Positions 13,671 to 40,048 are shown, counted from the first letter of the stretch. The stretch is 64,000 nt of DNA from Escherichia coli (GCF_024223415.1 NZ_CP100500.1), one strand, 5' to 3'. The notes: generated from the sequence alone by a model not told the origin. A program made the numbers and translations.

Positions 13671-16600
13671 TTATTCAAACAGGGCTTCAATATCGTTAAT
13701 TAGCTCGCTGGCGGTGATGGCATCGATTACGGAGAACTGCGCTTCCTGTGTTGAATTACTCCCCCAGCCATATCTTTCTGCTTTGCCTTCCCATAGCCAC
13801 AGCTTGCTTAAGAGCTGCTCAGCGCTGAGTTCGGCTGGCGACATGCCTACCGCAAAGCCTTCATCGATTTCCATGATTAACGACCAGCGACCCAAAGGTT
13901 TGATCATCCATCCGATCCAGCCTCCATCCTGTGGTTCGCCCTTTATCCAGCCTTTATTCGCCAGCCCCATGACCCGACCACTCGGGCATTTTCTGCCTGC
14001 CCAGCGGGTCAGTTCACTGGCATTGCGCTCGGCTTCTGTCAGGGCGTAGCTGTTACGGTCGATCTGGCGGAACGGTGGTAGCAGTTCGTAGTCGGCAAAA
14101 AGCTGACCAAAGGCGGCAGCATCCGTTGGTGATATTTCCAGAACGTGAGGAGTGCCGATAGAGATATCGCCTTCCGGCAGGGTGAAAAGATCATCGTCAG
14201 CGGTGCTGGAGCTGTTATCTTCTGCTACGCGAAAGCAAGCCAGTAGCTGGTTTTCGGCGCTATAAACGCCCCAAATCAGACGGCGGGTTAAGTGACGAAC
14301 CAGCGGATGCTCAACCAGGAAGAGCTGGAAGTTTTCCAGCGACCAGCGGCGGCGCAGGCACATGGCGGATTCCAGCCTTGCTACCTGCTGGGCGGCGATG
14401 GTACGCGCATCTTTTTTCAGCAATTTGTAGCGGTTAACCGCATCGTTCGCCCGCGTTTCATCATCGCTTTTGTTCGGTTTGGGCAGGTCTTTCAGGCGGC
14501 TGCCGGAAACATCACGCACAAACGGTTTTAAGGTTTCATCAAAGCTGACGGTGAACTGCCGTGGGCCAAAATCCAGCAGCAGCGAACCGTTATCATCCAG
14601 ACCGAGATCCGGTGCTAACCGATCTTCAAGCTCCGCCACCGTGAGTTCGCGGCTCTCGGCAATGTCGGCAATTTTTTCTTTTGCCCGCTCCTGTAATGCT
14701 TTGAATTTCAGTTTCTGGGCGATGCCGTTAAGCTGCATAAGGGCGATATCACTACCGATAGCAGCGAGAATATCCAACCCAACGGTGGCGCGTTTATGCT
14801 GGGATTCACCAGGCCAGGCGCGTATTAATGGCGTCAGTTTGCGGGCGGTGTCATCGTTACCGAGAACGCCTAACGCAGTGAACGCCCAACTCTCTTTCGA
14901 CGGCGCGCCAGCGGTCTGCCAGGCGGTAAACAGATCCCAGGCAAATCCCGCCAGTGAGTCGGCGGAACAGACGTCTTTCACCTGCAATAATCCCGGATAC
15001 AGAGCCTCTTCCTGAGGGAAGCGGAGCATTTCACCGAGGTGGAGGAGGGCGCTATCTGGCAGTGATTGGGCATTTGCTTTTAATACCGGGCGCGTCCAGA
15101 GCGATGGCTGATAAAAGGCCGGAAGAGTGGGGATTTTTGTCGGGTGATTATCTAAGGGATCGAGCGCAAGCAGAGCGTTCACCGCATCGGTTACTTCCGG
15201 CTGGTTATAACGTCGGGCGATTTCTTGCAGTAATGGCTGATGACCGTTTTCGGTAAGCATACGCAAGGCAGCGCGGGCGTTATCCTGGGCTTCACCGGCT
15301 TTGCCGAGCGCCGCAGGCAGCAGGCCGGTAAGGGCATGTTCCGGGTATTTCAACAGCCAGCTACGGGCGTTTTCGCGTAGCGTTTTCAGTTTGTTGAAGG
15401 CACGGGCGACGGCAGGAGCCAGCTCACTCGCTGCGAAGTAATTCGTGATGGGCAAGGCTTCTTGTGGATAGCGTGCAAGTGAGTTTACTAACCCAGGTAA
15501 CCCTTTGAGTCCAAAATGTAACATGGAGTATTCGGTATCGGTATGTGGAGATAGGGTAAGGGCATTCCATGCTTTTACTGCTTTCTCCAGCGGCAATGTT
15601 GTCAAAATCCCCAACTGCCAATAATGCCCGGTAGGTGAATGAAACACCTTAAATTCACTTAGTAAGGTTGAATAATCTTCATTTAGCCATGCCTCAACTA
15701 CCGCTTCGGGAGCTTTAATATATGTACCAGCGATCCGTCGTTGAAAACCCATCCTTGCCAACAGGTTGGTAGTACTTTCTTCATGGCTAACCGTGATGTG
15801 TTTTGAATACCAGATATATTTCGCCAAAAGTTGATTACTGATTTCTTCTGTCAGATAACAGATTGGCTCAATGCCTAATGGCGCTAAATCCAGCACCGGA
15901 ATCGGCGATTTTTTCTTTTTCGAAAGCCAGGGAGGGGAGACTACTACGGCTGGCAGTAGATCGGCGCTGGCATGGTTTGAGGGCTGTGTCAGTTGTTGCT
16001 GGCATGATTTCAGTACGGCAACTGCGGGTGTCGAGAGCCAGGGAATGACCTGTTCTGCCAGTGCTGGTTGTGAGATAAGCATTGTCATTAGCATAATGCG
16101 CCAACTGTTCTCTTCTTTTTGCCCAAGAAGTTCCGTCAGTGCCGCCATTGCTGCATGTGGGAACGCAGCAATGGCTTTCGTCATCCGATCGTGACAGCGT
16201 TTAGTTTGCCCGGCTACACGTATAAGCAGTGTCAATGCGAACGGATGATTGATATGACGCAACACATCGGCGCAGTAGTCACTTGCGGCATAGGGAGCAA
16301 ATCGGGGCAGGGCTGCAACACCTTGCTCCTGTAATACGGTGGCTGACCATATCGCACCACAATAGTAATCATCAAAAATGGCATATGGTTCGTGATATTT
16401 TTCTAATGAGGCAAGAATGTGCTCATCAGTCGCCACTATTTTTAACCACTCAAGCGAGGGTAATTTTTTTTGCCCCAGTAGACGCTGGGCAATTTCATGT
16501 GCAATTTCTGGTTTTTCGGGTAATAACAAAGCAATTAATGGTTGCCGCCATTCTGGAATATGTGGAATTGCTGCAATAAGTTTTTGTGCACATTTTTGCC

Positions 16601-17465
16601 AGAGAGACTCTTCCGTCAGTGATAAATGTTTACGTAGGCGTAATTCAAATCTGGAATATTGCTCCAAGTAGCTAGGTGCAATGCCAGACGGCAGAATAAT
16701 AATGACATTATTCGCATAATCCCATTCAATATCAATCTGTTGAAGGTGTGTTATTACATCAGTAGCATATTCCAGACCGCCTTCCTGGACGATCTGATCC
16801 ATAACATCCTCACGCACTTTATATCTTGTGCATTTCATTTCAAGTGCCGTGAGTACAGCCATTACTGGTGATGGTAACTGTGTTGTTTTCAGGCCGTCGA
16901 TCTGACTGATCGCCTGGGCGACGGTGTTTTGCCATTCTAAAGAACAGGCGCTGAAGTCAAATGTGGCTGTTTTATTATCCCGTTGCGACACACTACAGGC
17001 TAAGCGACGTAATTGGGTCAATTTGTCTGCTTGCTGAACAGGAACTCCGGGAAAGCGGCGATGACTTAACGTGGTGTGTACAACTTCGGGCGGAAAAACG
17101 ACAGCAATATCTTTCGCCAGCCACGGTAAAACAGCATCTGTATTTTTGTCAGGCGCACGGGTTTCTGCTACGAAAGAGGGTTGTTCCTGAATAATGGTGG
17201 ATAAGTCCGCTACCTTGAGAGAGCCCGTTACCGTTTGGGAAGGTTGCAAAGAATTATCCTTCGCTTGCTCCACATACCCCTTCTTCACCTTCTCCGCAAT
17301 CAGCTTAAGTTCCGCTTTTTCCGCTGCCGCAGCATCTGAAAAACTTTTTATCTGACTTTGCCCTTTGGTGCCAACTTTTCCCCAACTGATATGCAACTCG
17401 TTTCCCTGTTGCTCCACCGCCCAGAATTTATGTGATTTTTCGTCCTGATAGATAAAGTGTCTCAT
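13671..17465 (-). CDS. yehH: YehH (MolR), 1264-aa protein with an N-terminal WGR-like domain and a DUF4132-type body; intact here
   Basis: N-terminus MRHFIYQDEKSHKFWAVEQQGNELHISWGKVGTKGQ is WGR-like. It is a single ORF, whereas I recall K-12 molR being annotated as a split pseudogene. Confidence 0.85.
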   Translation of the reverse strand: MRHFIYQDEKSHKFWAVEQQGNELHISWGKVGTKGQSQIKSFSDAAAAEKAELKLIAEKVKKGYVEQAKDNSLQPSQTVTGSLKVADLSTIIQEQPSFVAETRAPDKNTDAVLPWLAKDIAVVFPPEVVHTTLSHRRFPGVPVQQADKLTQLRRLACSVSQRDNKTATFDFSACSLEWQNTVAQAISQIDGLKTTQLPSPVMAVLTALEMKCTRYKVREDVMDQIVQEGGLEYATDVITHLQQIDIEWDYANNVIIILPSGIAPSYLEQYSRFELRLRKHLSLTEESLWQKCAQKLIAAIPHIPEWRQPLIALLLPEKPEIAHEIAQRLLGQKKLPSLEWLKIVATDEHILASLEKYHEPYAIFDDYYCGAIWSATVLQEQGVAALPRFAPYAASDYCADVLRHINHPFALTLLIRVAGQTKRCHDRMTKAIAAFPHAAMAALTELLGQKEENSWRIMLMTMLISQPALAEQVIPWLSTPAVAVLKSCQQQLTQPSNHASADLLPAVVVSPPWLSKKKKSPIPVLDLAPLGIEPICYLTEEISNQLLAKYIWYSKHITVSHEESTTNLLARMGFQRRIAGTYIKAPEAVVEAWLNEDYSTLLSEFKVFHSPTGHYWQLGILTTLPLEKAVKAWNALTLSPHTDTEYSMLHFGLKGLPGLVNSLARYPQEALPITNYFAASELAPAVARAFNKLKTLRENARSWLLKYPEHALTGLLPAALGKAGEAQDNARAALRMLTENGHQPLLQEIARRYNQPEVTDAVNALLALDPLDNHPTKIPTLPAFYQPSLWTRPVLKANAQSLPDSALLHLGEMLRFPQEEALYPGLLQVKDVCSADSLAGFAWDLFTAWQTAGAPSKESWAFTALGVLGNDDTARKLTPLIRAWPGESQHKRATVGLDILAAIGSDIALMQLNGIAQKLKFKALQERAKEKIADIAESRELTVAELEDRLAPDLGLDDNGSLLLDFGPRQFTVSFDETLKPFVRDVSGSRLKDLPKPNKSDDETRANDAVNRYKLLKKDARTIAAQQVARLESAMCLRRRWSLENFQLFLVEHPLVRHLTRRLIWGVYSAENQLLACFRVAEDNSSSTADDDLFTLPEGDISIGTPHVLEISPTDAAAFGQLFADYELLPPFRQIDRNSYALTEAERNASELTRWAGRKCPSGRVMGLANKGWIKGEPQDGGWIGWMIKPLGRWSLIMEIDEGFAVGMSPAELSAEQLLSKLWLWEGKAERYGWGSNSTQEAQFSVIDAITASELINDIEALFE

Positions 17466-17605
17466 TCTGCATCCCTGTAATTTTATCCAGTTGAATGCAG
17501 ATGCTACCAGTATTTATGCGGGTTAGAGAGAGACAAAATCGCAAGAAAACAACTTTAGGAATTTATAAAGAAAAGGCGCTGTCGATGCAGCGCCTTGAAG
17601 GGGGA

Positions 17606-19639
17606 TTATTTCACCTGATGACCCGGTTTAGCACCAGCATCCGGGCTTAGCAGGAAGATATCTTTCCCGCCTGGACCGGCAGCCATCACCATGCCTTCGG
17701 AGATTCCAAAGCGCATTTTACGTGGTGCCAGGTTAGCCACCATAATGGTGTGACGACCAATCAGTGCCTGCGGATCCGGGTAGGCAGAACGAATACCGGA
17801 GAAGACATTGCGTTTTTCACCGCCGAGATCCAGTGTCAGGCGCAGCAGTTTGTCAGAACCTTCAACAAACTCTGCGTTTTCGATCAGCGCTACGCGCAGG
17901 TCAACTTTGGCGAAGTCGTCAAAGGTGATGGTTTCCTGAATCGGATCATCTGCCAGTGGGCCAGTAACTGGCGCGGCAGCTGCTTTCACTTCTTCTTTAG
18001 AGGCTTCCACCAGAGCTTCAACCTGTTTCATATCGATGCGGTTATACAGCGCCTTGAACGGATTCACTTTGTGGCCCAGCAGCGGTTGCTGGATACCATC
18101 CCAGGTCAGTTCCGTATTGAGGAAGGCTTCTGCACGCTCGGTCAGTTTCGGCAGTACCGGCTTCAGGTAAGTCATCAGCACGCGGAACAGGTTGATGCCC
18201 ATTGAGCAAATCGCCTGCAGGTCAGCATCGCGACCTTCCTGTTTTGCGACTACCCACGGAGCCTGTTCATCGACATAGCGGTTAGCCAGATCAGCCAGCG
18301 CCATGATTTCGCGCACAGCTTTACCAAATTCACGGCTTTCCCACGCTTCACCAATCACTTCAGCGGCATCAGTGAAGGTTTTGTACAACTGCGGGTCAGC
18401 CAGTTCGTTTGCCAGCACGCCGTCAAAACGTTTGTTGATAAAGCCCGCGTTACGGGAGGCCAGGTTAACCACTTTGTTAACGATATCGGCATTCACGCGC
18501 TGAACGAAATCCTCCAGGTTGAGATCGATATCATCAATGCGCGAAGAGAGTTTCGCAGTGTAGTAGTAACGCAGGCTGTCAGCGTCAAAATGATTCAGCC
18601 AGGTGCTGGCTTTAATAAAGGTGCCGCGAGACTTGGACATCTTCGCGCCGTTCACCGTCACATAGCCATGAACAAACAGGTTGGTCGGCTTGCGGAAGTT
18701 GCTGCCTTCCAGCATGGCAGGCCAGAACAGGCTGTGGAAGTAAACGATATCTTTACCGATGAAGTGGTACAGCTCGGCGGTGGAGTCTTTCTTCCAGTAT
18801 TCATCGAAGCTTACGCTGTCGCCGCGCTTGTCGCACAGATTCTTGAAAGAACCCATGTAGCCAATCGGTGCGTCCAGCCAGACGTAGAAATATTTGCCCG
18901 GCGCGTTCGGAATTTCAAAACCGAAGTAAGGGGCGTCGCGGGAGATATCCCACTGTTGCAGGCCAGATTCAAACCACTCCTGCATTTTATTTGCCACCTG
19001 CTCCTGCAACGCACCGCTGCGGGTCCATGCCTGCAACATTTCGCTGAAAGAGGGCAGATCAAAGAAGAAGTGTTCAGAATCACGCATTACCGGCGTAGCG
19101 CCAGAAACCACCGATTTCGGCTCGATCAATTCAGTCGGGCTGTAGGTCGCGCCGCAGACTTCGCAGTTATCGCCGTATTGATCCGGGGATTTACATTTCG
19201 GGCAGGTGCCTTTCACAAAACGGTCCGGCAGGAACATGCCTTTTTCCGGATCGTACAGCTGAGAGATGGTGCGGTTTTTAATAAAACCGTTTTCTTTCAG
19301 GCGAGAGTAGATAAGTTCTGACAACTGGCGGTTCTCTTCGCTGTGCGTCGAGTGATAGTTGTCATAGCTGATGTTAAAGCCTGCGAAATCAGTCTGATGC
19401 TCCTGACTCATTTCGCCAATCATCTGCTCCGGTGTGATACCAAGCTGCTGAGCTTTCAGCATGATCGGTGTACCGTGGGCATCGTCGGCGCAGATGAAGT
19501 TGACCTCGTGGCCGCGCATTCGCTGGTAACGGACCCAGACATCAGCCTGGATGTGCTCCAGCATATGGCCGAGGTGGATTGAGCCGTTAGCGTACGGCAG
19601 TGCGCACGTCACCAGAATTTTCTTCGCGACTTGAGTCAT
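17606..19639 (-). CDS. metG: Methionyl-tRNA synthetase
   Basis: [25 protein letters not shown] (HIGH motif) and KMSKS are both present. Product is 677 aa. Confidence 0.97.
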
Positions 19640-19770
19640 AGTAGGCATTACTTCTTAATAGTGAAAAGGGGTTAGATAGTACCAAATGGGAAAATGTTAA
19701 GTAAGTACTTCTCTATATTCTTCAGGTAAACTATCAGCTGATGGTTTATCTATACAAAAAAGGAGTCGGG

Positions 19771-20880
19771 ATGAACGAACAATCCCAGGCCAAATCACCA
19801 GAAGCCTTGCGCGCAATGGTCGCCGGGACACTGGCCAATTTTCAGCACCCAACCCTGAAGCATAACCTCACCACGCTGAAAGCGTTGCACCATGTCGCCT
19901 GGATGGACGACACGTTGCATGTGGAACTGGTTATGCCATTCGTCTGGCATAGCGCGTTTGAAGAGTTAAAAGAGCAATGTAGCGCCGAACTGCTGCGTAT
20001 CACCGGGGCGAAAGCTATCGACTGGAAACTGTCGCACAATATCGCCACCTTAAAACGCGTGAAGAATCAGCCGGGTATTAATGGCGTGAAGAACATCATT
20101 GCGGTCAGTTCCGGTAAAGGCGGCGTGGGTAAATCCTCCACGGCGGTAAACCTGGCACTGGCGCTGGCGGCAGAAGGGGCGAAAGTCGGCATTCTGGACG
20201 CCGATATCTACGGCCCATCAATCCCAACAATGTTGGGCGCAGAAAATCAGCGTCCAACTTCGCCGGACGGTACCCATATGGCACCGATTATGTCTCATGG
20301 CCTGGCAACCAATTCAATTGGTTATCTGGTCACTGACGACAATGCGATGGTGTGGCGTGGACCGATGGCGAGCAAGGCGTTAATGCAGATGTTGCAGGAA
20401 ACCTTGTGGCCGGATCTCGACTATCTGGTGCTTGATATGCCGCCAGGCACCGGTGACATTCAATTGACGCTTGCGCAAAACATTCCAGTAACTGGTGCAG
20501 TCGTGGTCACCACCCCGCAGGACATCGCGTTGATCGATGCGAAAAAAGGCATTGTGATGTTCGAGAAAGTCGAGGTTCCGGTGCTTGGTATTGTCGAGAA
20601 CATGAGTGTGCATATTTGCAGTAACTGTGGTCACCATGAACCGATTTTCGGTACCGGTGGTGCAGAGAAACTGGCTGAAAAATACCACACACAGCTGCTG
20701 GGGCAGATGCCGTTACACATCTCCTTACGTGAGGATCTCGATAAAGGCACGCCAACGGTTATCAGCCGTCCGGAGAGCGAATTTACCGCTATCTACCGCC
20801 AGCTGGCTGACCGCGTTGCAGCTCAGCTCTACTGGCAGGGTGAAGTCATTCCAGGCGAGATTTCCTTCCGCGCGGTCTAA
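19771..20880 (+). CDS. mrp: Fe-S cluster carrier ATPase Mrp/ApbC
   Basis: MNEQSQAKSPEALRAM start, a deviant Walker A SGKGGVGKSS, and a CxxC motif. Confidence 0.92.
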   Translation: MNEQSQAKSPEALRAMVAGTLANFQHPTLKHNLTTLKALHHVAWMDDTLHVELVMPFVWHSAFEELKEQCSAELLRITGAKAIDWKLSHNIATLKRVKNQPGINGVKNIIAVSSGKGGVGKSSTAVNLALALAAEGAKVGILDADIYGPSIPTMLGAENQRPTSPDGTHMAPIMSHGLATNSIGYLVTDDNAMVWRGPMASKALMQMLQETLWPDLDYLVLDMPPGTGDIQLTLAQNIPVTGAVVVTTPQDIALIDAKKGIVMFEKVEVPVLGIVENMSVHICSNCGHHEPIFGTGGAEKLAEKYHTQLLGQMPLHISLREDLDKGTPTVISRPESEFTAIYRQLADRVAAQLYWQGEVIPGEISFRAV

Positions 20881-21142
20881 CGCCTATTAACCATTCTGGT
20901 TATTCTTCATACACCGCAGAGATGTTACATTGATGCGGTGTATTAGTTTTTGCCGCATTAATGAACACTTATTTAATACTGCGAATATTCTGCGGACCTT
21001 CGTCCGAAACTCTACAAAGTCGATTGATCATACAGGCAATGCTTCATTATCATCCTTCGTGGCTGTGTAGTGGATGTACAGCTATAGTTTGTTATGCACT
21101 CATTCTATCCAGGCATAACCTTTACTACAGGGATAACGTTCA

Positions 21143-21424
21143 ATGAATAAGTATTGGCTGTCAGGAATTATTTTTCTTGCCTATGGATTGGCTTCTCCCG
21201 CATTCTCTTCAGAGACTGCCACATTAGCGATTAATGGCAGGATCAGTCCCCCAACATGCAGTATGGCTATGGTTAATGGTCAACCTCAACAGCATTGTGG
21301 TCAGTTAACGTATAATGTTGACACCCGTCATCTGTTTTCTTCGCCCGTCAAAGGTGTAACGACAGAAGTGGTTGTTGCAGGTAGCGATAGCAAACGTCGA
21401 ATCGTGTTAAATCGCTACGATTAA
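21143..21424 (+). CDS. yehE: YehE, small secreted protein upstream of the yeh fimbrial operon
   Basis: 93-aa ORF with a signal peptide, in the K-12 position. Confidence 0.7.
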   Translation: MNKYWLSGIIFLAYGLASPAFSSETATLAINGRISPPTCSMAMVNGQPQQHCGQLTYNVDTRHLFSSPVKGVTTEVVVAGSDSKRRIVLNRYD

Positions 21425-21455
21425 TTTGGCAACCTGATTTTAATTGCATTTAGAA

Positions 21456-21493
21456 AGCCGAAATCATTTATATAAATGATTTCGGCTTTTTTA
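21456..21493 (+). terminator. Rho-independent terminator after yehE
   Basis: agccgaaatcattta/taaatgatttcggct is a 15-bp stem followed by TTTTTT. Confidence 0.75.
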
Positions 21494-21716
21494 TTGATAT
21501 CAACAATACCATTTACATAAATCTACATTAATTGATAGATGCGATAAATAGTTAATACTCTTAAATATTTGTTGTATTTATATTGCAATGGTTAATTTGT
21601 TTTAAATCAATAAAACAATGTGTTTACATTGCGGCAACTTTTTTGATGTGAGAAATTTGTTTCCAAGAGATACAGACTCTTAACAACCAAAAATAAATTT
21701 TATTAAGGAACATATT

Positions 21717-22259
21717 ATGAAACGTTCAATTATTGCTGCCGCTGTCTTTTCTTCTTTTTTTATGAGCACTGGAGTATTTTCTGCAGACGTTGATACCGGA
21801 ACATTAACTATTAAGGGGAATATTGCAGAATCTCCGTGTAAATTCGAAGCGGGTGGTGATTCAGTAAGTATTAATATGCCGACTGTACCAACCACTGTCT
21901 TTGAAGGTAAAGCTAAATATTCTACCTATGATGATGCAGTCGGTGTAACCAGCAGCATGTTAAAAATTAGCTGCCCGAAAGAAGTTGCTGGTGTAAAACT
22001 CTCGTTGATTACCAACGATAAAATAACCGGTAACGATAAGGCGATAGCCAGTAGCAACGATACCGTGGGGTACTATCTCTATTTAGGTGATAACAGCGAT
22101 GTCCTGGATGTTTCTGCACCTTTTAACATTGAGAGTTATAAAACAGCGGAAGGTCAATATGCTATTCCGTTTAAAGCAAAATACCTGAAACTGACAGATA
22201 ACTCAGTGCAATCAGGTGATGTGTTATCTTCTCTGGTTATGCGTGTGGCGCAGGATTAA
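21717..22259 (+). CDS. yehD: Fimbrial major subunit YehD
   Basis: Signal peptide and a type-1 fimbrial subunit pattern. It is the first gene of the chaperone-usher cluster. Confidence 0.85.
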   Translation: MKRSIIAAAVFSSFFMSTGVFSADVDTGTLTIKGNIAESPCKFEAGGDSVSINMPTVPTTVFEGKAKYSTYDDAVGVTSSMLKISCPKEVAGVKLSLITNDKITGNDKAIASSNDTVGYYLYLGDNSDVLDVSAPFNIESYKTAEGQYAIPFKAKYLKLTDNSVQSGDVLSSLVMRVAQD

Positions 22260-22293
22260 TAAATAAAATTGTAAGTTTCTCCAGGTAATAAAC

Positions 22294-23013
22294 ATGGCCG
22301 CTATCCCATGGCGGCCTTTTAATTTAAGAGGCATTAAAATGAAAGGATTATTATCTTTACTCATTTTTTCTATGGTCCTTCCTGCACATGCCGGAATTGT
22401 TATCTACGGGACGCGCATTATTTACCCGGCAGAAAATAAAGAAGTGATGGTGCAGTTGATGAACCAGGGAAACCGTTCTTCGCTGCTGCAGGCGTGGATT
22501 GATGATGGCGATACGTCATTACCACCAGAAAAAATTCAGGTTCCTTTCATGTTAACGCCACCAGTGGCAAAAATAGGGGCAAATTCCGGGCAGCAAGTAA
22601 AAATCAAAATTATGCCGAATAAACTGCCCACTAATAAAGAAAGCATTTTTTATCTGAATGTTCTGGATATTCCACCAAATAGTCCAGAGCAAGAAGGTAA
22701 GAATGCACTGAAGTTTGCGATGCAAAACAGAATTAAGTTGTTTTACCGGCCAGCGGGTATTGCTCCGGTAAATAAAGCGACATTTAAAAAATTGCTGGTA
22801 AATCGCAGTGGCAATGGTTTGGTGATAAAAAATGACTCAGCTAATTGGGTGACGATTTCGGATGTCAAAGCTAATAATGTTAAAGTCAATTATGAAACTA
22901 TTATGATTGCCCCCTTAGAAAGTCAGAGTGTTAATGTCAAAAGTAATAATGCAAATAACTGGTATCTGACCATTATCGATGACCACGGCAACTATATTAG
23001 TGACAAAATTTAA
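22294..23013 (+). CDS. yehC: Periplasmic fimbrial chaperone YehC
   Basis: PapD-like chaperone motifs (GTRIIYP, NRIKLFYRP). An alternative start at 22339 (MKGLLSLL) is possible. Confidence 0.85.
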   Translation: MAAIPWRPFNLRGIKMKGLLSLLIFSMVLPAHAGIVIYGTRIIYPAENKEVMVQLMNQGNRSSLLQAWIDDGDTSLPPEKIQVPFMLTPPVAKIGANSGQQVKIKIMPNKLPTNKESIFYLNVLDIPPNSPEQEGKNALKFAMQNRIKLFYRPAGIAPVNKATFKKLLVNRSGNGLVIKNDSANWVTISDVKANNVKVNYETIMIAPLESQSVNVKSNNANNWYLTIIDDHGNYISDKI

Positions 23014-23028
23014 TTGCAGGAGCTGCCT

Positions 23029-25509
23029 ATGTTGAGAATGACCCCACTTGCATCAGCAATCGTAGCGTTATTGCTCGGCATTGAAGCTTATGCAGCTGAA
23101 GAAACCTTTGATACCCATTTTATGATAGGTGGAATGAAAGACCAGCAGGTTGCAAATATTCGTCTTGATGATAATCAACCCTTGCCGGGGCAGTATGACA
23201 TCGATATTTATGTCAATAAGCAATGGCGCGGGAAATATGAGATCATTGTTAAAGACAACCCGCAAGAAACATGTTTATCAAGAGAAGTTATCAAGCGGTT
23301 AGGCATTAATAGCGATAACTTCGCCAGCGGTAAGCAATGTTTAACATTTGAGCAACTTGTTCAGGGGGGGAGCTATAGCTGGGATATCGGGGTTTTTCGT
23401 CTCGATTTCAGTGTCCCGCAGGCTTGGGTGGAAGAACTGGAAAGTGGCTATGTTCCACCGGAAAACTGGGAGCGGGGTATTAATGCGTTTTATACCTCTT
23501 ATTATGTGAGTCAGTATTACAGCGACTATAAAGCGTCGGGTAATAACAAGAGTACATATGTACGTTTTAACAGCGGGTTAAATTTACTGGGGTGGCAACT
23601 GCATTCTGATGCCAGTTTCAGTAAAACAAATAACAATCCAGGGGTGTGGAAAAGCAATACCCTGTATCTGGAACGTGGATTTGCCCAACTTCTCGGCACG
23701 CTTCGCGTGGGTGATATGTACACATCAAGCGATATTTTTGATTCTGTTCGCTTCAGCGGTGTGCGGTTGTTTCGTGATATGCAGATGTTGCCTAACTCGA
23801 AACAAAATTTTACGCCACGGGTGCAGGGGATTGCTCAGAGTAACGCGCTGGTAACTATTGAACAGAATGGTTTTGTGGTTTATCAGAAAGAGGTTCCTCC
23901 TGGCCCGTTTGCGATTACAGATTTGCAGTTGGCCGGTGGTGGAGCGGATCTTGATGTCAGCGTGAAAGAGGCGGACGGTTCGGTAACCACCTATCTGGTG
24001 CCTTATGCAGCGGTGCCAAATATGCTGCAACCCGGCGTGTCGAAATATGATTTTGCGGCGGGTCGTAGCCATATTGAAGGGGCGAGCAAACAAAGTGATT
24101 TTGTCCAGGCGGGTTATCAGTATGGTTTTAATAACTTATTGACGCTGTATGGTGGCTCGATGGTTGCTAATAATTACTATGCCTTTACTTTGGGGACTGG
24201 CTGGAATACACGCATTGGTGCCATTTCCGTCGATGCCACGAAGTCGCATAGTAAACAAGACAACGGCGATGTGTTTGACGGGCAAAGTTATCAAATTGCC
24301 TACAACAAATTTGTGAGCCAAACGTCGACGCGTTTTGGTCTGGCGGCCTGGCGTTATTCGTCGCGTGATTACCGGACATTTAACGATCACGTTTGGGCAA
24401 ACAATAAAGATAATTATCGCCGTGATGAAAACGATGTCTATGACATTGCCGATTATTACCAGAATGATTTTGGTCGCAAAAATAGCTTTTCCGCCAATAT
24501 GAGCCAGTCATTGCCAGAAGGTTGGGGGTCTGTGTCATTAAGTACGTTATGGCGAGATTACTGGGGGCGTAGCGGCAGTAGTAAGGATTATCAGTTGAGT
24601 TATTCCAACAACCTGCGACGGATAAGCTATACCCTCGCGGCAAGCCAGGCTTATGACGAGAATCATCATGAAGAGAAACGTTTTAATATTTTTATATCGA
24701 TTCCCTTTGATTGGGGTGATGACGTTTCGACGCCTCGTCGGCAAATATATATGTCTAACTCAACGACGTTTGATGATCAGGGGTTTGCCTCAAATAATAC
24801 GGGATTATCAGGAACAGTAGGGAGTCGGGATCAGTTCAATTATGGTGTCAACCTGAGTCATCAACATCAGGGAAATGAAACGACAGCTGGGGCGAATTTG
24901 ACCTGGAACGCGCCGGTTGCGACAGTGAATGGCAGTTATAGTCAGTCGAGTACTTATCGACAGGCTGGAGCCAGTGTTTCAGGGGGCATTGTCGCCTGGT
25001 CGGGTGGCGTTAATCTGGCGAACCGTCTTTCCGAAACGTTTGCTGTGATGAATGCGCCAGGAATTAAAGATGCTTATGTCAATGGGCAAAAATATCGCAC
25101 AACAAACCGTAATGGAGTGGTGATATACGACGGAATGACACCTTATCGGGAAAATCACCTGATGCTGGATGTGTCGCAAAGCGATAGCGAAGCAGAATTA
25201 CGTGGCAACCGGAAAATTGCCGCCCCTTATCGCGGCGCGGTTGTACTGGTTAATTTTGATACCGATCAGCGCAAGCCCTGGTTTATTAAAGCGTTAAGAG
25301 CGGATGGTCAACCATTAATGTTTGGTTATGAAGTCAATGATATCCATGGTCATAATATTGGCGTTGTCGGCCAGGGAAGCCAGTTATTTATTCGCACCAA
25401 TGAAGTACCGCCATCGGTTAATGTGGCAATTGATAAGCAACAAGGACTTTCATGCACAATCACCTTCGGTAAAGAGATTGATGAAAGTAGAAATTATATT
25501 TGCCAGTAA
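23029..25509 (+). CDS. yehB: Outer-membrane fimbrial usher YehB
   Basis: The MLRMTPLASAIV start gives 826 aa. The sequence is usher-family throughout. Confidence 0.9.
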   Translation: MLRMTPLASAIVALLLGIEAYAAEETFDTHFMIGGMKDQQVANIRLDDNQPLPGQYDIDIYVNKQWRGKYEIIVKDNPQETCLSREVIKRLGINSDNFASGKQCLTFEQLVQGGSYSWDIGVFRLDFSVPQAWVEELESGYVPPENWERGINAFYTSYYVSQYYSDYKASGNNKSTYVRFNSGLNLLGWQLHSDASFSKTNNNPGVWKSNTLYLERGFAQLLGTLRVGDMYTSSDIFDSVRFSGVRLFRDMQMLPNSKQNFTPRVQGIAQSNALVTIEQNGFVVYQKEVPPGPFAITDLQLAGGGADLDVSVKEADGSVTTYLVPYAAVPNMLQPGVSKYDFAAGRSHIEGASKQSDFVQAGYQYGFNNLLTLYGGSMVANNYYAFTLGTGWNTRIGAISVDATKSHSKQDNGDVFDGQSYQIAYNKFVSQTSTRFGLAAWRYSSRDYRTFNDHVWANNKDNYRRDENDVYDIADYYQNDFGRKNSFSANMSQSLPEGWGSVSLSTLWRDYWGRSGSSKDYQLSYSNNLRRISYTLAASQAYDENHHEEKRFNIFISIPFDWGDDVSTPRRQIYMSNSTTFDDQGFASNNTGLSGTVGSRDQFNYGVNLSHQHQGNETTAGANLTWNAPVATVNGSYSQSSTYRQAGASVSGGIVAWSGGVNLANRLSETFAVMNAPGIKDAYVNGQKYRTTNRNGVVIYDGMTPYRENHLMLDVSQSDSEAELRGNRKIAAPYRGAVVLVNFDTDQRKPWFIKALRADGQPLMFGYEVNDIHGHNIGVVGQGSQLFIRTNEVPPSVNVAIDKQQGLSCTITFGKEIDESRNYICQ

Positions 25510-25524
25510 TAGTCAGGTGGTTCT

Positions 25525-26559
25525 ATGGAAATTCGCATAATGCTATTTATATTAATGATGATGGTTATGCCTGTGAGCTATGCGGCATGTTATAGTGAGT
25601 TATCTGTTCAGCACAATTTGGTTGTTCAGGGGGATTTTGCACTTACTCAAACACAAATGGCGACATATGAGCATAATTTTAATGATTCGTCATGCGTGAG
25701 TACAAATACTATCACCCCTATGAGCCCGTCGGATATTATTGTTGGACTTTATAACGATACCATTAAATTAAATTTACATTTTGAATGGACCAATAAAAAC
25801 AACATCACGTTGTCAAATAATCAGACCAGTTTCACCAGTGGTTATTCAGTTACGGTGACACCTGCGGCCAGTAATGCAAAAGTGAATGTTTCTGCGGGGG
25901 GCGGCGGTTCAGTGATGATTAATGGTGTTGCGACATTATCCAGTGCTTCATCATCGACACGCGGGAGTGCCGCAGTACAATTTCTACTGTGTTTATTAGG
26001 TGGCAAGTCATGGGATGCATGTGTAAATAGCTACAGAAATGCATTGGCACAAAATGCAGGTGTCTATTCCTTTAATCTGACATTGTCATACAACCCGATA
26101 ACCACAACCTGCAAACCGGACGATTTATTAATTACTTTAGACAGTATTCCCGTTTCACAATTACCAGCCACAGGTAACAAAGCAACAATAAATAGTAAAA
26201 AAGAGGATATTATTCTGCGTTGTAAAAATTTATTAGGTCAACAAAATCAAACATCACGGAAAATGCAGGTGTATTTATCAAGTTCTGACTTGTTAACCAA
26301 CAGCAACACAATACTGAAAGGTGCGGAAGATAATGGCGTAGGATTTATTCTTGAAAGTAATGGTTCGCCAGTCACACTTTTAAATATCACTAACAGCAGT
26401 AAAGGATACACAAATTTAAAAGAAATTGCGGCAAAGTCAAAACTTACAGATACAACGGTTTCAATTCCGATAACAGCCAGTTACTACGTCTACGATACAA
26501 ATAAAATTAAATCTGGCGCACTGGAGGCAACCGCATTAATCAACGTGAAATACGACTAA
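25525..26559 (+). CDS. yehA: Fimbrial adhesin-like subunit YehA
   Basis: 344-aa secreted protein and last gene of the yehDCBA cluster. Confidence 0.8.
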   Translation: MEIRIMLFILMMMVMPVSYAACYSELSVQHNLVVQGDFALTQTQMATYEHNFNDSSCVSTNTITPMSPSDIIVGLYNDTIKLNLHFEWTNKNNITLSNNQTSFTSGYSVTVTPAASNAKVNVSAGGGGSVMINGVATLSSASSSTRGSAAVQFLLCLLGGKSWDACVNSYRNALAQNAGVYSFNLTLSYNPITTTCKPDDLLITLDSIPVSQLPATGNKATINSKKEDIILRCKNLLGQQNQTSRKMQVYLSSSDLLTNSNTILKGAEDNGVGFILESNGSPVTLLNITNSSKGYTNLKEIAAKSKLTDTTVSIPITASYYVYDTNKIKSGALEATALINVKYD

Positions 26560-26615
26560 TAACAAGCAAGACGAGCAAGTGGCTAATAATAAAAAATAAC
26601 AAGGTGTCTGCATTT

Positions 26616-28143: not shown

Positions 28144-28416
28144 ATGTCTCATACAATCCGTGATAAACAGAAACTGAAAGCGCGTGCCAGTAAGATTCAG
28201 GGCCAGGTCGTGGCGCTCAAGAAAATGCTCGACGAGCCGCACGAATGCGCTGCAGTTTTACAACAGATTGCTGCTATCCGTGGCGCGGTAAACGGTCTGA
28301 TGCGGGAAGTGATTAAAGGTCATCTGACGGAACACATCGTTCACCAGGGGGATGAGCTAAAACGTGAAGAAGATCTGGATGTCGTTCTGAAGGTGCTGGA
28401 TTCATATATCAAATAA
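28144..28416 (+). CDS. rcnR: Ni/Co-responsive repressor RcnR (CsoR/RcnR family)
   Basis: 90-aa protein [21 protein letters not shown], in the K-12 position. Confidence 0.92.
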
Positions 28417-28510
28417 TTTATTAACGCGATTGTAAAACTGCCGTTTTTCCTCGTTTACAACGCGTGCGCTGGACATTACCATCCTCCTCTGCGATTTATC
28501 ATCGCAACCA

Positions 28511-28557
28511 AACGACTCGGGGTGCCCTTCTGCGTGAAGGCTGAGAAATACCCGTAT
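28511..28557 (+). promoter_or_regulatory. 5' half of the thiM TPP (THI-box) riboswitch aptamer, cut off by the island
   Basis: aacgactcggggtgcccttctgcgtgaaggctgagaaatacccgtat equals the 5' part of the crystallised E. coli thiM aptamer. Similarity ends abruptly at 28557. Confidence 0.88.
28544..28557 (+). repeat. attL core (direct repeat copy 1)
   Basis: agaaatacccgtat is identical to 39954-39967. Confidence 0.8.
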
Positions 28558-28642
28558 TTTCTCATTTAGTGTTTTTTGTGGTTCGGGGTTGTTCGTGGTT
28601 GTTTGTGTATGTGTTTGATATATATTGAATTATTGTGTTTTC

Positions 28643-28718
28643 TTGTTTGTTGTTGTTCGTCGTTGTTCGTAGAGCTTCAACAAAATGTGTGGTCAGTTGT
28701 GTGGTCAGTTTTTTGAGG
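28643..28718 (+). repeat. Left-arm copy of a ~75-bp repeat shared by both island arms (candidate Int arm-type sites)
   Basis: 28653-28712 is 60/60 identical to 39831-39890. It contains tandem GTGTGGTCAGTT x2 and TTGTTCGT x2, and a further GTTGTTCGT copy lies near 28594. Confidence 0.8.
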
Positions 28719-28745: not shown

Positions 28746-29969
28746 GTGGGAAAAGCACTAAACAAACTGAGCGATTCGACGTTAAAAAAATTGGCGTCTG
28801 TCCAAGCAGAAAAAGAGCGTTTTTACTCCGACGGGGGCGGGCTGGAGATTAAACACTCAAAGGGCGGCAAATTAACCTGGTATTTCCGGTACCGAACGGG
28901 AGGCCGTGAGGTTGCCGCAGAGCGGTTAAAGCTGGGGGCTTACCCTGAATTGTCGCTGAAAGCTGCAAGGGAAAAACGCGCACAGTGCCGGGCATGGCTG
29001 GCTGAGGGTAAAAACCCCCGTTATGAGTTGTGCGCCACAGTACAGGAAGCGCTAAAACCCGTTACGGTGAAGGAGGCGATTAACTACTGGCTGGATGAAT
29101 ATGCGAAGGATAACCGCAAAGACTACATAAAGCTGGTGCAACGTATGGATAAGCACATCATTTGCCATATAGGGGCAATTCCCCTTGATAAGTGTGATAC
29201 AAGGCAGTGGATCGCATGTTTTGACCGTGTACGAAAAAAAGCACCAGTAGCAGCAGGGCACGTCATGCAAACCTGCAAACAGGCGCTAAAGTTCTGCCGC
29301 AGGAGACGCTACGCGTTCAGTAATGCCCTGGACGATTTGATCGTCAGCGATGTGGGTAAGAGAGCAGAAATTCGCGAGAGGGTGCACAGCAACAGCGAAT
29401 TAAAGGAAATTTTACGCGCTATTGATGGTGATGTGTTCGCGCCTTACTACAGCGCGTTAATGCGCTTGCTGATTGTGTTCGGGTGCAGAACGGCAGAGGT
29501 CAGACTTTCAGAGATCAAAGAATGGGATCTGAAAGAAATGTTGTGGACAGTGCCAAAAGAGCATAGCAAAACGAAGGTAACGATATTCAGGCCAATCCCC
29601 GATGGCATTTTGCCGTTCATTCAGAAGCTGGTGGAGCAGAACCGGCATACAGGGTTATTACTCGGAGAACTGAAAAAAGATACCACGGTAGCGCAATATG
29701 GGCGAAATGCGCATAAGCGGCTTAACCAGGAACACTGGACGCTGCATGACTTTCGCCACACGTTTACAACGATGCTGAACGATTTAGGTGTCGATCCGCA
29801 TATCGTGGAGCACATCACAGCGCATCAGATGCCCGGTCAGCAAAAAACCTATAACCATTCACGCTATTTACAGGCGAAGCGAGACGCTCTGAATCTGTGG
29901 GTTGAGCGCCTCGATGTGCTGGCTGGAAATCATGAAAATATTGTCATATTAAGGGCTGAAAATGAATAA
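28746..29969 (+). CDS. int: Tyrosine recombinase, P4-type integrase
   Basis: GTG start with a GAGGA RBS 7 nt upstream. The N-terminus resembles an arm-binding domain (GGGLEIKHSKGGKLTWYFRYR). The C-terminus has HDFRHTF...HQ...Y catalytic motifs. Confidence 0.9.
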   Translation: MGKALNKLSDSTLKKLASVQAEKERFYSDGGGLEIKHSKGGKLTWYFRYRTGGREVAAERLKLGAYPELSLKAAREKRAQCRAWLAEGKNPRYELCATVQEALKPVTVKEAINYWLDEYAKDNRKDYIKLVQRMDKHIICHIGAIPLDKCDTRQWIACFDRVRKKAPVAAGHVMQTCKQALKFCRRRRYAFSNALDDLIVSDVGKRAEIRERVHSNSELKEILRAIDGDVFAPYYSALMRLLIVFGCRTAEVRLSEIKEWDLKEMLWTVPKEHSKTKVTIFRPIPDGILPFIQKLVEQNRHTGLLLGELKKDTTVAQYGRNAHKRLNQEHWTLHDFRHTFTTMLNDLGVDPHIVEHITAHQMPGQQKTYNHSRYLQAKRDALNLWVERLDVLAGNHENIVILRAENE

Positions 29970-30747
29970 TCTGGGCCGTGTATATCATACGCTGCCAATG
30001 GCAGCTAAAAAAATGGGATGTACTGTAGAGGATATTCTACATTTTGGTGCAACTAACCGACTTGAAATATGTGCGTATATTGATGATATTGAACAGAGAA
30101 AAGATTATTGCACTTTTAATGTGTTTTTTGATAATGAAGATAGCGAGAATAGTTTTTCTAAAACTATAAATAAATATAATTCCATATTTACTGACATGTA
30201 TGAAATATCATTGTTTAATTATAATGATGAGTTTTGTGTTGATGATGAGCGTATGGTTATTGAAGGTTTGTATGCTAATCATATGAAAGGCTTTTTTGCA
30301 ATACCATCTGAATTTCTTGTCGAAGTTGAATTGTCAAGTGCCTGTGAAATCATAAATCTATCGCCTCGTTATTTATATACACCGAAAGGTTATGGTGATT
30401 ATATTCGGTTGGATAGTATAGAAGGTCTTTCTATTCCAGAAAACAGGCTCGTGATATTCGATAGTGAGATATCGGGTTTTAATTATCAAAAGAAACCTAA
30501 ATATGCCGGAGGTGAAAGAGAATCACCTAAAACCAGAGCTAAAAAAGCCGAGATAATACCTGCTCTCATAAAACTGATCCCTGAGATGCAAGATGTGGAT
30601 TTGGAGGATACACCCGTATCCAAAATTGCAGAAATGATAGAGGTTATTGCTGCACAAAGAGGGGTTGAGTTACCTAGCACTCACAGGCAGACATGGCAGA
30701 AATATTTAGGGCGTGATGCTGGTGACGTTCCAAAACGTCAAAAGTGA
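29962..30747 (+). CDS. Hypothetical 261-aa protein, strongly AT-rich cargo-like gene, with possible N- and C-terminal HTH-like segments
   Basis: The ATG overlaps the int stop (ATGAATAA). I recognise no family. Composition is visibly more AT-rich than its neighbours. Confidence 0.6.
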   Translation: MNNLGRVYHTLPMAAKKMGCTVEDILHFGATNRLEICAYIDDIEQRKDYCTFNVFFDNEDSENSFSKTINKYNSIFTDMYEISLFNYNDEFCVDDERMVIEGLYANHMKGFFAIPSEFLVEVELSSACEIINLSPRYLYTPKGYGDYIRLDSIEGLSIPENRLVIFDSEISGFNYQKKPKYAGGERESPKTRAKKAEIIPALIKLIPEMQDVDLEDTPVSKIAEMIEVIAAQRGVELPSTHRQTWQKYLGRDAGDVPKRQK

Positions 30748-30837: not shown

Positions 30838-31062
30838 ATGAATCAAAATACACAATTTCAATCACTATCAGATCGCGTAATCCGTGAGGATGAATGCCGT
30901 AAGTTAACAGGAGTGTGCCGCACTACACGCTACGAACTGGAGAAAAAAGGGAGCTTTCCGTCTCGCCGTAATCTTGGTGGGCGTTCTGTAGGTTGGCTGC
31001 TGTCCGAGGTTATGGAATGGGTTAAAAGCCGGGATCGCATTAATTCAGGCAAGGCAGCGTAA
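30838..31062 (+). CDS. alpA: AlpA-family (prophage CP4-57 regulatory / excisionase-like) DNA-binding protein
   Basis: 74 aa with the motif RVIREDECRKLTGVCRTTRYELEKKGSFPSRRNLGGRSVGWLLSEVMEWV, typical of the AlpA/Vis family. Confidence 0.85.
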   Translation: MNQNTQFQSLSDRVIREDECRKLTGVCRTTRYELEKKGSFPSRRNLGGRSVGWLLSEVMEWVKSRDRINSGKAA

Positions 31063-34586: not shown

Positions 34587-34814
34587 CTGTCTACCCTGTC
34601 TACCTGAGTAAAGAAAAATACATTTAATTCAGTGCATTAAGTTAGGTAGATAGCCTTTTTTTACTGTCTACCCACTATCTACCCTCTCTACCTGATTTTA
34701 CCAGAATCAGACAGGGAGGTAGACACGGGGTAGATAGTGGATAAAAGCACTCTACCCCGCTGAAAGCCGCGCCATTACTGGCATGAGGGCCACTAAGGTA
34801 GGTAAGGTAGACAA
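34587..34814. other. Candidate island replication origin: iteron cluster (C)TGTCTACC / GGTAGA(C/T)A
   Basis: Direct copies at 34587, 34596, 34664, 34675, 34684 and 34751. Inverted copies at 34645, 34718, 34729 and 34806. The cluster lies in the 288-bp non-coding gap after the replicase gene. Confidence 0.75.
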
Positions 34815-39261: not shown

Positions 39262-39506
39262 AACGCAAAATTGCGCTGGCTACATCCCTCACATCTGAGG
39301 ACTGATAACAAGCTGCCTGAAAGACAGTCACAAACTACGAAATTTTCGCAGTTTAATTAATGGTCAGCTTAATCGCTAACCCGCTGATATTTTCGGAAAC
39401 ATCAATTTGAGGAAGTCGGCGCGGTAACTCGCTGAACTTAAAGCAAAGCGCAAAATTGCGCTGATTACTGGTTGGAATTGTTCCAGAGTGCAAATTTGCA
39501 CTCTGG
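39262..39506. repeat. Set of related inverted repeats (GCGCAA-AA-TTGCGC type) plus a 24-bp perfect palindrome
   Basis: aacgcaaaattgcgct at 39262-39277, agcgcaaaattgcgct at 39447-39462, and ccagagtgcaaatttgcactctgg at 39483-39506. Confidence 0.7.
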
Positions 39507-39667
39507 CCTAACCCGTTGATTATTTCGAAAACCTGCAATGCAGGAAATCGGGGAAGTAAGCCTAAGCTATTGATTGTTTCGAAAACCACCATTGGGGGAT
39601 GTCGGGAAAGTAAGACTAACCCATTGATTCTTCCACAATCCTCAATGTGAGGAGGCCGGACATCGTG
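39376..39667. repeat. Four degenerate ~54-bp repeat units (three in exact tandem phase) in the right arm of the island
   Basis: Units start at 39376, 39508, 39562 and 39616. Consensus is CTAACCCnTTGATTnTTTCGAAAAC plus a short hairpin plus GTCGG..AGTAAG. Confidence 0.75.
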
Positions 39668-39820
39668 ACAGAGCGTGACAACCAGGTAACTAATCTCGCT
39701 GGTGGGCGTGATGTCGATATGGTGATCCCCATAACGGGTTATCCGTGATCATCCACCAGCTTCATGGCAGATAGCCGGAAAATGATAACGGTTAAGCAAA
39801 ACTGCCAGCAAATTTCCCTT

Positions 39821-39894
39821 TTGTTTGTTATTGTTCGTCGTTGTTCGTAGAGCTTCAACAAAATGTGTGGTCAGTTGTGTGGTCAGTTTTGAGG
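39821..39894 (+). repeat. Right-arm copy of the ~75-bp repeat shared by both island arms
   Basis: 39831-39890 is identical to 28653-28712. Confidence 0.8.
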
Positions 39895-39953
39895 TTTTTA
39901 ATTCTTATGTGCTGAAAAACTTATTAATTATCAACTGATAACAAAAATTAGTA

Positions 39954-39967
39954 AGAAATACCCGTAT
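39954..39967 (+). repeat. attR core (direct repeat copy 2)
   Basis: agaaatacccgtat is identical to 28544-28557. Confidence 0.8.
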
Positions 39968-40048
39968 CACCTGATCTGGATAATGCCAGCGTAGGGAAGT
40001 CACGGACCACCAGGTCATTGCTTCTTCACGTTATGGCAGGAGCAAACT
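39954..40048 (+). promoter_or_regulatory. 3' half of the thiM TPP riboswitch aptamer plus its expression platform
   Basis: agaaatacccgtatcacctgatctggataatgccagcgtagggaagtcacgg...ggcaggagcaaact continues the thiM aptamer exactly where 28557 stops and runs to the thiM ATG. Confidence 0.88.

Follow-up and report, generated by a model that had tools for sequence, protein, structure and literature searches.

Repeat modules in both arms of a phage satellite inserted in the Escherichia coli thiM riboswitch: probable integrase arm-type sites adjoined by a probable AlpA array

The window considered here, that is, the whole 64-kb stretch of Escherichia coli DNA that was analysed, contains an 11.4-kb phage satellite, a PICI of the EcCI224 type, inserted in the thiM TPP riboswitch. 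The island lies between rcnR (28144-28416) and thiM (from 40049), and not in the late gene of a helper prophage. Its identity as a phage satellite follows from the encoded gene set (integrase, AlpA, primase, capsid-E, decoration-D and terminase), where the primase is of the D5 type, the small terminase is Nu1-like and an SSB is also encoded. The integration genes, the attachment sites and the two riboswitch halves are placed as follows.

28508..28557, + strand: 5' half of the thiM TPP riboswitch aptamer, at attL (by comparison with the intact riboswitch of L137)
28544..28557, + strand: attL identity block AGAAATACCCGTAT, 14 bp
28746..29969, + strand: tyrosine integrase (Int), with N-terminal Arm-DNA-bind_3 at residues 8-94 (PF13356, E=2.3e-18; PF00589, E=7e-17; PHROG 1)
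30838..31062, + strand: AlpA-family wHTH protein, excisionase/regulator (Pfam PF05930, E=4e-16; PHROG 2790)
39954..39967, + strand: attR identity block AGAAATACCCGTAT, 14 bp
39954..40014, + strand: 3' half of the thiM TPP riboswitch, at attR (Rfam TPP, 36.4 bits, below the gathering score of 54.3)

The supplements of PMC10111431 list rcnR_thiM.EcCI224 with exactly the block AGAAATACCCGTAT, and removal of the island from the sequence yields an attB that matches uninterrupted E. coli genomes at 100% identity. Int of the same type has also inserted at a secondary site within yphF; as the two sites have only ACCCGTA in common, the crossover is confined to these 7 bp (28550-28556). The published att list names the site simply rcnR_thiM; at an uninterrupted site (L137, 508-604) the intact TPP riboswitch scores 71.2 bits, and the insertion point is within the aptamer, in the J3-2/P2 region, where the island sequence fails to restore P1-P3. 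The 5' half of the riboswitch and a thiM promoter-like site (28454-28482) are left facing int, and thiMD retains the 3' half only.

Further observations concern the cargo of the island and of its relatives. A 261-aa ORF (29962-30747) overlaps the int stop codon and is without a Pfam or PHROG match; the ORFs that occupy this position in L001 and L002 carry the annotation DUF6387, and the ORF is missing from L032 and L034, which retain the arm architecture described below, so that it is unnecessary for that architecture. Directly after the primase gene, at 34587-34743, lies a cluster of iteron-like CTGTCTACC/CTATCTACCC repeats, direct and inverted, which is probably the satellite replication origin and which gave spurious weak matches to miRNA families of Rfam. 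The stretch that follows the last ORF and leads up to the right arm (39374-39613) contains a 54-nt unit in three copies (GCCTAACCCGTTGAT..TTCGAAAAC..GGAAGTAA, 70-78% identical) and a 24-bp perfect palindrome (39483-39506); parts of this unit recur at the right ends of related islands, and the region may be a TerS-binding or cos-proximal region or an sRNA. In strain A65EC (L002 13880-13930 / L003 2040-2100), a capsid-forming satellite (HK97 capsid, portal, TerL) with an Int 96.5% identical and a left module 100% identical to those of the window lies within the 5' end of yphF, and this secondary site has only GAGAA..ACCCGTA in common with the thiM site. The same attP-int module thus serves very different cargo and a second target.

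The subject of this analysis is a direct repeat carried by both ends of the island, inside the attachment sites. The repeat search of the window aligned 28643-28712 with 39821-39890 over 70 nt at 69/70 identity (99%), the sole mismatch being G28652 against A39830, and 28653-28712 equals 39831-39890 at 60/60 positions. A T-run is followed by TTTTTTGAGG in the left copy and by TTTTGAGG in the right one, and with a 2-nt indel the match runs on through GAGG to about 75 bp. The left copy is 85 bp past the att identity block and 33 bp ahead of the int start (28746), and the right copy ends 63 bp from the attR block and 158 bp from thiM. The preliminary description, which had reported a perfect 60-bp identity between the arms in direct orientation, its extension to about 75 bp with one mismatch and a 2-nt T-run difference, and its placement between attL and int on one side and about 60 bp from attR on the other, is borne out on each of these points by the repeat search and by the sequence of both copies. 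The parts of the two modules, and other candidate sites in the arms, are listed here.

28643..28712, + strand: left-arm module (P' arm, int-proximal), 70-bp, bipartite (repeat search, sequence)
39821..39890, + strand: right-arm module (P arm), 70-bp, bipartite (69/70 to the left copy)
28642..28671, + strand: left three-unit array CTTGTTTGT, GTTGTTCGT, GTTGTTCGT, proposed AlpA (RDF) array
39820..39849, + strand: right three-unit array TTTGTTTGT, ATTGTTCGT, GTTGTTCGT
28686..28709, + strand: left doubled 12-mer tgTGTGGTCAgt x2, proposed Int arm-type half-site pair, at +133..+156 from the crossover centre
39864..39887, + strand: right doubled 12-mer tgTGTGGTCAgt x2, proposed Int arm-type half-site pair, at -99..-76 from the crossover centre
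28587..28606, + strand: two core-proximal units GTTGTTCGT, GTTGTTTGT on the P' arm
28608..28620, - strand: IHF-like site TATCAAACACATA in the gap between core and left module, 1 mismatch (consensus match only)
39929..39941, + strand: IHF-like site TATCAACTGATAA in the gap between right module and core, 1 mismatch to WATCAANNNNTTR (consensus match only)

Each copy consists of three 10-bp-phased TTGTTCGT-like units and a tandem 12-mer, tgTGTGGTCAgt x2. The composition from short tandem motifs, two of each per copy, had been described correctly (GTGTGGTCAGTT occurs twice in tandem, and exact TTGTTCGT twice), and a further copy of TTGTTCGT lies at 28589. Within the 12-mers, TGTGGTCAGT cores start at 28688, 28700, 39866 and 39878, and at the same positions TGTGGTCA forms an 8-nt core doubled at a 12-nt period. 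The 64-kb window holds five exact copies of TGTGGTCAGT, four of them in the arms, and allowing at most one mismatch gives 11 matches against 2.5 expected, a number reached in 0/100 shuffles. Similarly, TTGTTCGT occurs seven times in the window (2.3 expected; 0/100 shuffles reach 7), and five of the seven are in the arms, at 28653, 28663, 39831, 39841 and the 28589 position already mentioned. The units start at 28642, 28652 and 28662 on the left and at 39820, 39830 and 39840 on the right, as direct repeats with a 10-bp period, the first unit of each array being degenerate and the other two exact. These arrays adjoin the putative arm-type sites, ending about 15 bp before the 12-mers, and the TTGTTCGT units are found on both arms rather than being confined to one; core-proximal units like those at 28587..28606 are also present in L032, a related island at cspD/clpS.

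Among 5,426 complete E. coli genomes, a 76-bp segment containing the module is present in 75, and all 75 carry at least two copies; a solo copy was searched for in the same genomes and none was found. Related islands with the segment in one arm only, which would have spoken against the preliminary description, were thus looked for, in these genomes and in the related loci compared below, and were not encountered. The rcnR-thiM attB is uninterrupted in 4,727 of the 5,426 genomes, which leaves about 700 with a split or altered region; as only 75 genomes have the 76-bp segment, the site must also be used by other occupants or by more diverged types of arm. Two other origins of the repeats, as att sites proper of a nested element or as scars that tandem integration left behind, were considered and rejected, since there is no solo copy in the 5,426 genomes, the uninterrupted attB is without the segment, and the repeats lie inside the island ends with island-specific spacers.

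In the attP reconstructed from the two ends, the doubled 12-mers occupy -99..-76 and +133..+156 from the crossover. They are outside the core, on the attP arms, and distinct in sequence from the inverted repeats of the core, whose half-sites are GAGAAA / TTTCTC, unlike the arm core TGTGGTCA. Closely similar distances are seen in the attP of L032 (-100..-77 and +132) and of L136, a PICI at fis (about -80 and +132), and for helper-embedded PICIs (HE-PICIs) the published positions of the doubled motif are -81 +/- 2 and +132 +/- 2 (PMC10111431). The excised circle would place the two copies about 230 bp apart, within an attP-int module of about 1.6 kb. Such a configuration exists in nature. The first 290 nt of L143, a metagenomic viral contig, are 95.9% identical to the reconstructed attP of L032, and L219 is a circular metagenomic contig (119-nt terminal overlap) in which two doubled motifs 232 nt apart follow the order right doubled motif, core, left doubled motif, int. 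The excised form was seen directly for these two sister types only and not for the thiM type, as a search of metagenomes for a thiM-type attP (two doubled motifs 195-225 nt apart) gave no match. The earlier suggestion that the copies flank the attP core on both sides in the circle therefore agrees with the reconstruction and, for the sister types, with contigs of the excised form.

Relatives with Ints 40-76% identical were located in contigs via protein homology; the search with the single Int protein gave no confirmed relative among genome contigs and, among viral contigs, only Ints 96-99% identical. In L032 (Int 67% identical), the module is 60 nt long, begins its first occurrence 20 nt ahead of int and recurs at the right end; it is composed of TTGTTCGT units and GGTGTAGTTAAT x2, and the two arms are only 78% identical. 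L136 has TGCAGTCAGT x2 in both arms, and HE-PICIs have TGTATTGC x2 in both arms (loci collected here; PMC10111431); in L095 and L136 the arms share only the doubled motif of 24-25 bp. Among loci selected solely on Int homology, those with DNA upstream of int number 28 (Int 49-97% identical; several represent the same element type and are not all independent), and 28/28 have a tandem-doubled unit 9-38 nt before the int start, with a period of 12 nt in 27 and 11 nt in one, in about 10 sequence variants. The variants of this architecture are found in islands at thiM, cspD/clpS, fis, tqsA, roxA/phoQ and beside dppA. For L156-type islands, the composite-pattern search gave no match in right arms, and the right arm was read from the E. 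coli O157 locus L225. The repeat architecture and its geometry are thus conserved across the Int clade.

Two of these relatives deserve separate mention. L225 (E. coli O157:H7 TR01, roxA-phoQ, 16165-26601) is a PICI with the capsid-E/decoration/TerS content and order of the window island, at a different site and with a different Int/attP module of the TGTAGTTAAT type, indicating free reassortment of integration modules and cargo. In L135 (10001-11218), an Int 65% identical to that of the window is accompanied by a TGTAGTTAAT/TGCAGTTAAT doubled motif and follows immediately on the lysis and terminase-like genes of a prophage that encodes Stx; the arrangement suggests a helper-embedded PICI whose Int lineage is other than that of the TGTATTGC HE-PICIs.

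An alignment of 12 left and 13 right arms, taken from IMG/VR and E. coli loci, separates what is constant in the module from what is not. All 12 left arms agree in the doubled 12-mer, which is also exact in 11/13 right arms, the other two having one change, and the 5' T/G-rich half varies; the comparison of arms proposed earlier thus singles out the 12-mers as the conserved submotif. The left copy is 100% conserved beside flanks that are 88-94% identical. In seven paired islands, left and right copies are identical at 59-69/70 positions, the window being the maximum and the six others ranging over 59-68/70, and all but one of the differences fall outside the 12-mers; a 60/60 identity is hence not a requirement of the family, in keeping with the earlier remark that conservation over 60 bp is more than arm sites need. 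Two haplotypes are seen among the left arms, one window-like and almost the same as the right arm in sequence, the other diverged (type B, 59/70); L016 has both right-arm-specific variants in its left copy, and the same A/G polymorphism occurs in both arms. In this small sample, the haplotype patterns, together with the full conservation of the left copy beside its less conserved flanks, make the 60/60 identity look like recent homogenisation between the arms by gene conversion or recombination, and of the explanations offered at the outset for this identity, recent gene conversion is the one that accounts for it best.

Comparison of the motifs with the encoded proteins indicates which protein may read which motif. 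The AlpA proteins of the window and of L032 are identical over the aligned part (63/63) and their 12-mers differ; L156/L225 and L158/L219 have identical AlpA and different 12-mers; and L198 and L205 have near-identical AlpA and quite different motifs. AlpA therefore does not determine the 12-mer. L031 and L133, both at the thiM site, have Ints that are 94% identical in the catalytic part and 71% in the N-domain, with TGTGGTCA in L031 and TGAGGTCA in L133, whereas L032 and L135, with N-domains 87% identical, use the same motif family. Between L225/L156 and L219/L158 the 12-mer and the Int N-domain change together, the 12-mer in both arms (TTAAT against TCACT), although the stretches of T/G units that immediately precede the doubled motif are alike in L225 and L219 on either arm. 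As judged from these comparisons, the 12-mer sequence is shown to follow the N-terminal arm-binding domain of Int, and not AlpA or the catalytic domain. N-domains and 12-mers do not correspond one to one, as the N-domain of L034 is 61-66% identical to those of L032 and L135 and they have one 12-mer type in common. Linkage explains part of the covariation, because the left pair adjoins int within an attP-int module of only ~1.6 kb; the coordinated switch in two arms with conserved intervening T/G regions is the only observation that would partly escape it. A host factor as the reader of the motifs was ruled out, since they differ among islands in the same host species.

The 10-bp units behave differently. 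The AlpA recognition-helix RTTRYELEK accompanies the unit TTGTTCGT in the window and L032, RTTRYMMEK the unit GTTCAT in fis PICIs, RTCRYRLEK the unit TTGTTYCA in L156, L158 and L225, and RSTRFDWER the unit TTGTCCGT in L034. The TTGTTCGT units would thus follow AlpA and not Int, and are more likely to be sites for the RDF or regulator, an assignment weakened by L134, which has GTTCGT units and an AlpA 51% identical to that of the window. The preliminary description had likened all of these motifs to arm-type integrase sites; this now holds for the 24-bp doubled 12-mer, which co-varies with the Int N-domain in both arms, and no longer for the TTGTTCGT units, which would go with AlpA rather than Int.

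Taken together, the two copies probably represent the P-arm and P'-arm protein-binding modules of the PICI attP, each composed of probable integrase arm-type sites and a probable AlpA array, a reading to which we assign a probability of about 0.7. The 12-mer pairs are most likely arm-type sites for the N-terminal arm-binding domain of the island tyrosine integrase, a protein-motif pairing that we infer from covariation; the two pairs would supply four half-sites, one per protomer of an Int tetramer. Some 23 helical turns separate the centres of the two pairs, and arm-bound Int could be brought to the core by IHF-like bends, one on each side between pair and core. The TTGTTCGT units, phased at 10 bp, are most likely occupied by AlpA in a head-to-tail array of the kind formed by other wHTH RDFs (PMC11963761), which would direct excision and/or regulate int. 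As the left 12-mer pair lies just before the int start (36 bp, or 33 bp when the T-run of the module is included), between any upstream promoter and the int RBS, Int bound there would probably also repress int. The near-perfect identity over 60-70 bp would not be functionally required, and may reflect homogenisation on top of purifying selection acting on the motifs.

Other readings of the module were weighed against this one. That AlpA, as RDF or activator, binds the entire 70-bp module, 12-mers included, and thereby controls excision and activates int, is unlikely, even though PMC10111431 also considers AlpA among the possible binders of the doubled motif in HE-PICIs, tandem direct repeats are common targets of wHTH RDFs and the left copy adjoins the int start; in at least three independent comparisons (window/L032, L156/L225 against L158/L219, L198/L205), identical or near-identical AlpA proteins are accompanied by different 12-mers.

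Somewhat less probable again is a duplicated promoter or leader element, one copy of which would drive int and the other the thiMD genes cut off from their promoter and riboswitch. The setting invites such a reading, as the island splits the thiM riboswitch and shifts the thiM promoter by 11.4 kb, both copies face a downstream gene (int at 33 bp, thiM at 158 bp), and the motif in TGTATAAACA-type relatives resembles a -10 box. However, a scan for sigma-70 promoters (-35/-10 with 16-18-bp spacing) found no site over either copy, its only match being the thiM promoter-like site at 28454-28482, and the promoter alternative of the preliminary description thus found no support. The two-copy geometry is also seen at cspD/clpS, fis, tqsA, roxA/phoQ and in late genes of prophages, although the host DNA that the right copy faces there is unrelated, and the distance is fixed to the crossover and not to the downstream gene.

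The unusually high identity in this island (69/70) and the haplotypes suggestive of exchange between arms would also be expected if the repeat were a mere recent duplication or gene-conversion tract devoid of sequence-specific function. We regard this as improbable, because the architecture and its spacing from the crossover are kept both where the arms are only 78% identical (L032) and where they share no more than the doubled motif (L095, L136), and because divergence of the flanks leaves the 12-mers invariant. Iterons typically consist of short tandem repeats, and the right copy is near that end of the island which has the TerS gene, but a role as replication iterons or as packaging (cos/pac) sites of the satellite is very improbable, given that the separate iteron-like cluster follows the primase gene and that the doubled motif tracks int and the crossover across unrelated cargo (RepA against D5 primase; HK97 against capsid-E). 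A structured RNA (sRNA or leader), another suggestion of the preliminary description, is the least probable of all, since the fold of the left copy (z = -2.76, + strand) is not repeated in the right copy (z = -0.38) or significant on the minus strands, left arms of type B, with CAGCGAAA, disrupt the hairpin TTGTTTGTTG/CAACAAAA, and neither copy matched an Rfam family at E<=1.

Returning to the arm-module reading, a more far-reaching extension of it is possible, though we hold it only tentatively. The doubled 12-mer might constitute a clade-wide arm-site code, in which each Int N-domain variant would have its own word of 8-10 nt (about 10 seen), always as 2+2 half-sites at fixed helical positions. 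The N-domain and both arm pairs would then form an orthogonality module, exchanged or co-evolving independently of core/target specificity and of AlpA. In the present island, int and thiMD would have been rewired, int coming under the host thiM promoter with roadblock control by Int, and thiMD coming under satellite control after destruction of the riboswitch.

The analysis provides a testable attP map for a widespread family of phage satellites of E. coli and Salmonella, with four putative Int arm half-sites, AlpA-type arrays and IHF-like bends. It indicates that the doubled motif is general to the integrase clade, whereas earlier reports of it had been confined to helper-embedded PICIs, and it adds sequence variants that follow the Int N-domain and covariation that favours Int over AlpA. 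Such variants could help predict which integrase pairs with which island (cross-mobilisation, orthogonality), and may offer natural orthogonal Int/attP pairs for genome engineering. The striking 60-bp identity would find an ordinary explanation in putative recent homogenisation over conserved binding motifs, and the splitting of the thiM riboswitch has possible consequences for thiamine regulation and for int expression.

Among known systems, lambda Int is heterobivalent, with an N-terminal arm-binding domain, and its arm sites P1, P2 and P'1-P'3 flank the core and are reached via bends, with IHF and Xis sites in addition. The Xis sites of lambda are on one arm only, and adjoin an arm site. 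The present system resembles it in the N-terminal arm-binding domain, in arm sites on both sides of the core that are distinct from the core sites and would be reached via bends, and in putative RDF sites that adjoin an arm site. It differs in the symmetric 2+2 layout of identical, co-oriented pairs, in the greater distance of the P' pair from the core (+133..+156, much farther than lambda P'1-3), and in the putative RDF units on both arms, which is unusual in comparison with the one-arm Xis sites.

Two integrative elements offer further parallels. The P4-family integrase IntS of ICEMlSymR7A needs five arm motifs TGKTGGTATC, P1-P5, its wHTH RDF (RdfS) binds beside the arm site upstream of intS, and attP-bound IntS represses intS (PMC11963761). 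A P4-family integrase, arm motifs with GTGGT and a wHTH RDF beside the int-upstream arm site are thus points of likeness, although the five sites there are dispersed, compared with two tandem pairs here, RdfS has no clear consensus motif, and the element is an ICE and not a phage satellite. For ICEKp1 (PMC13023037), state-dependent transcription of int and use of a host promoter are described, with int directly downstream of attL and co-oriented with the host promoter, and with the right end joined upstream of int in the circle, an arrangement like that of the present island. Here the thiM promoter-like site (28454-28482) is oriented toward int and no terminator is predicted between them, and by analogy int may be transcribed from the host thiM promoter; the repeat in the present island itself is without a promoter consensus.

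The closest counterpart is the attP of HE-PICIs, in which the doubled motif tgTGTATTGCantgTGTATTGCa was reported with the arm domains of an Int tetramer, or AlpA, as proposed binder (Mageeney et al. 2023, PMC10111431). Both systems repeat an 8-nt core with a period of 12 nt, and in both the attP has two copies in the same orientation at comparable distances (about -81/+132 there, -76/-99 and +133 here), one of them just upstream of int. The differences are in the core (TGTATTGC there, TGTGGTCA here), in the Int, which is only ~40% identical, in the location (a helper prophage late gene there, a chromosomal riboswitch here), and in the neighbouring 10-bp units, which the window island also shares between its arms. 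As a sequence variant of the doubled motif known from related islands, the feature is well supported and largely ordinary.
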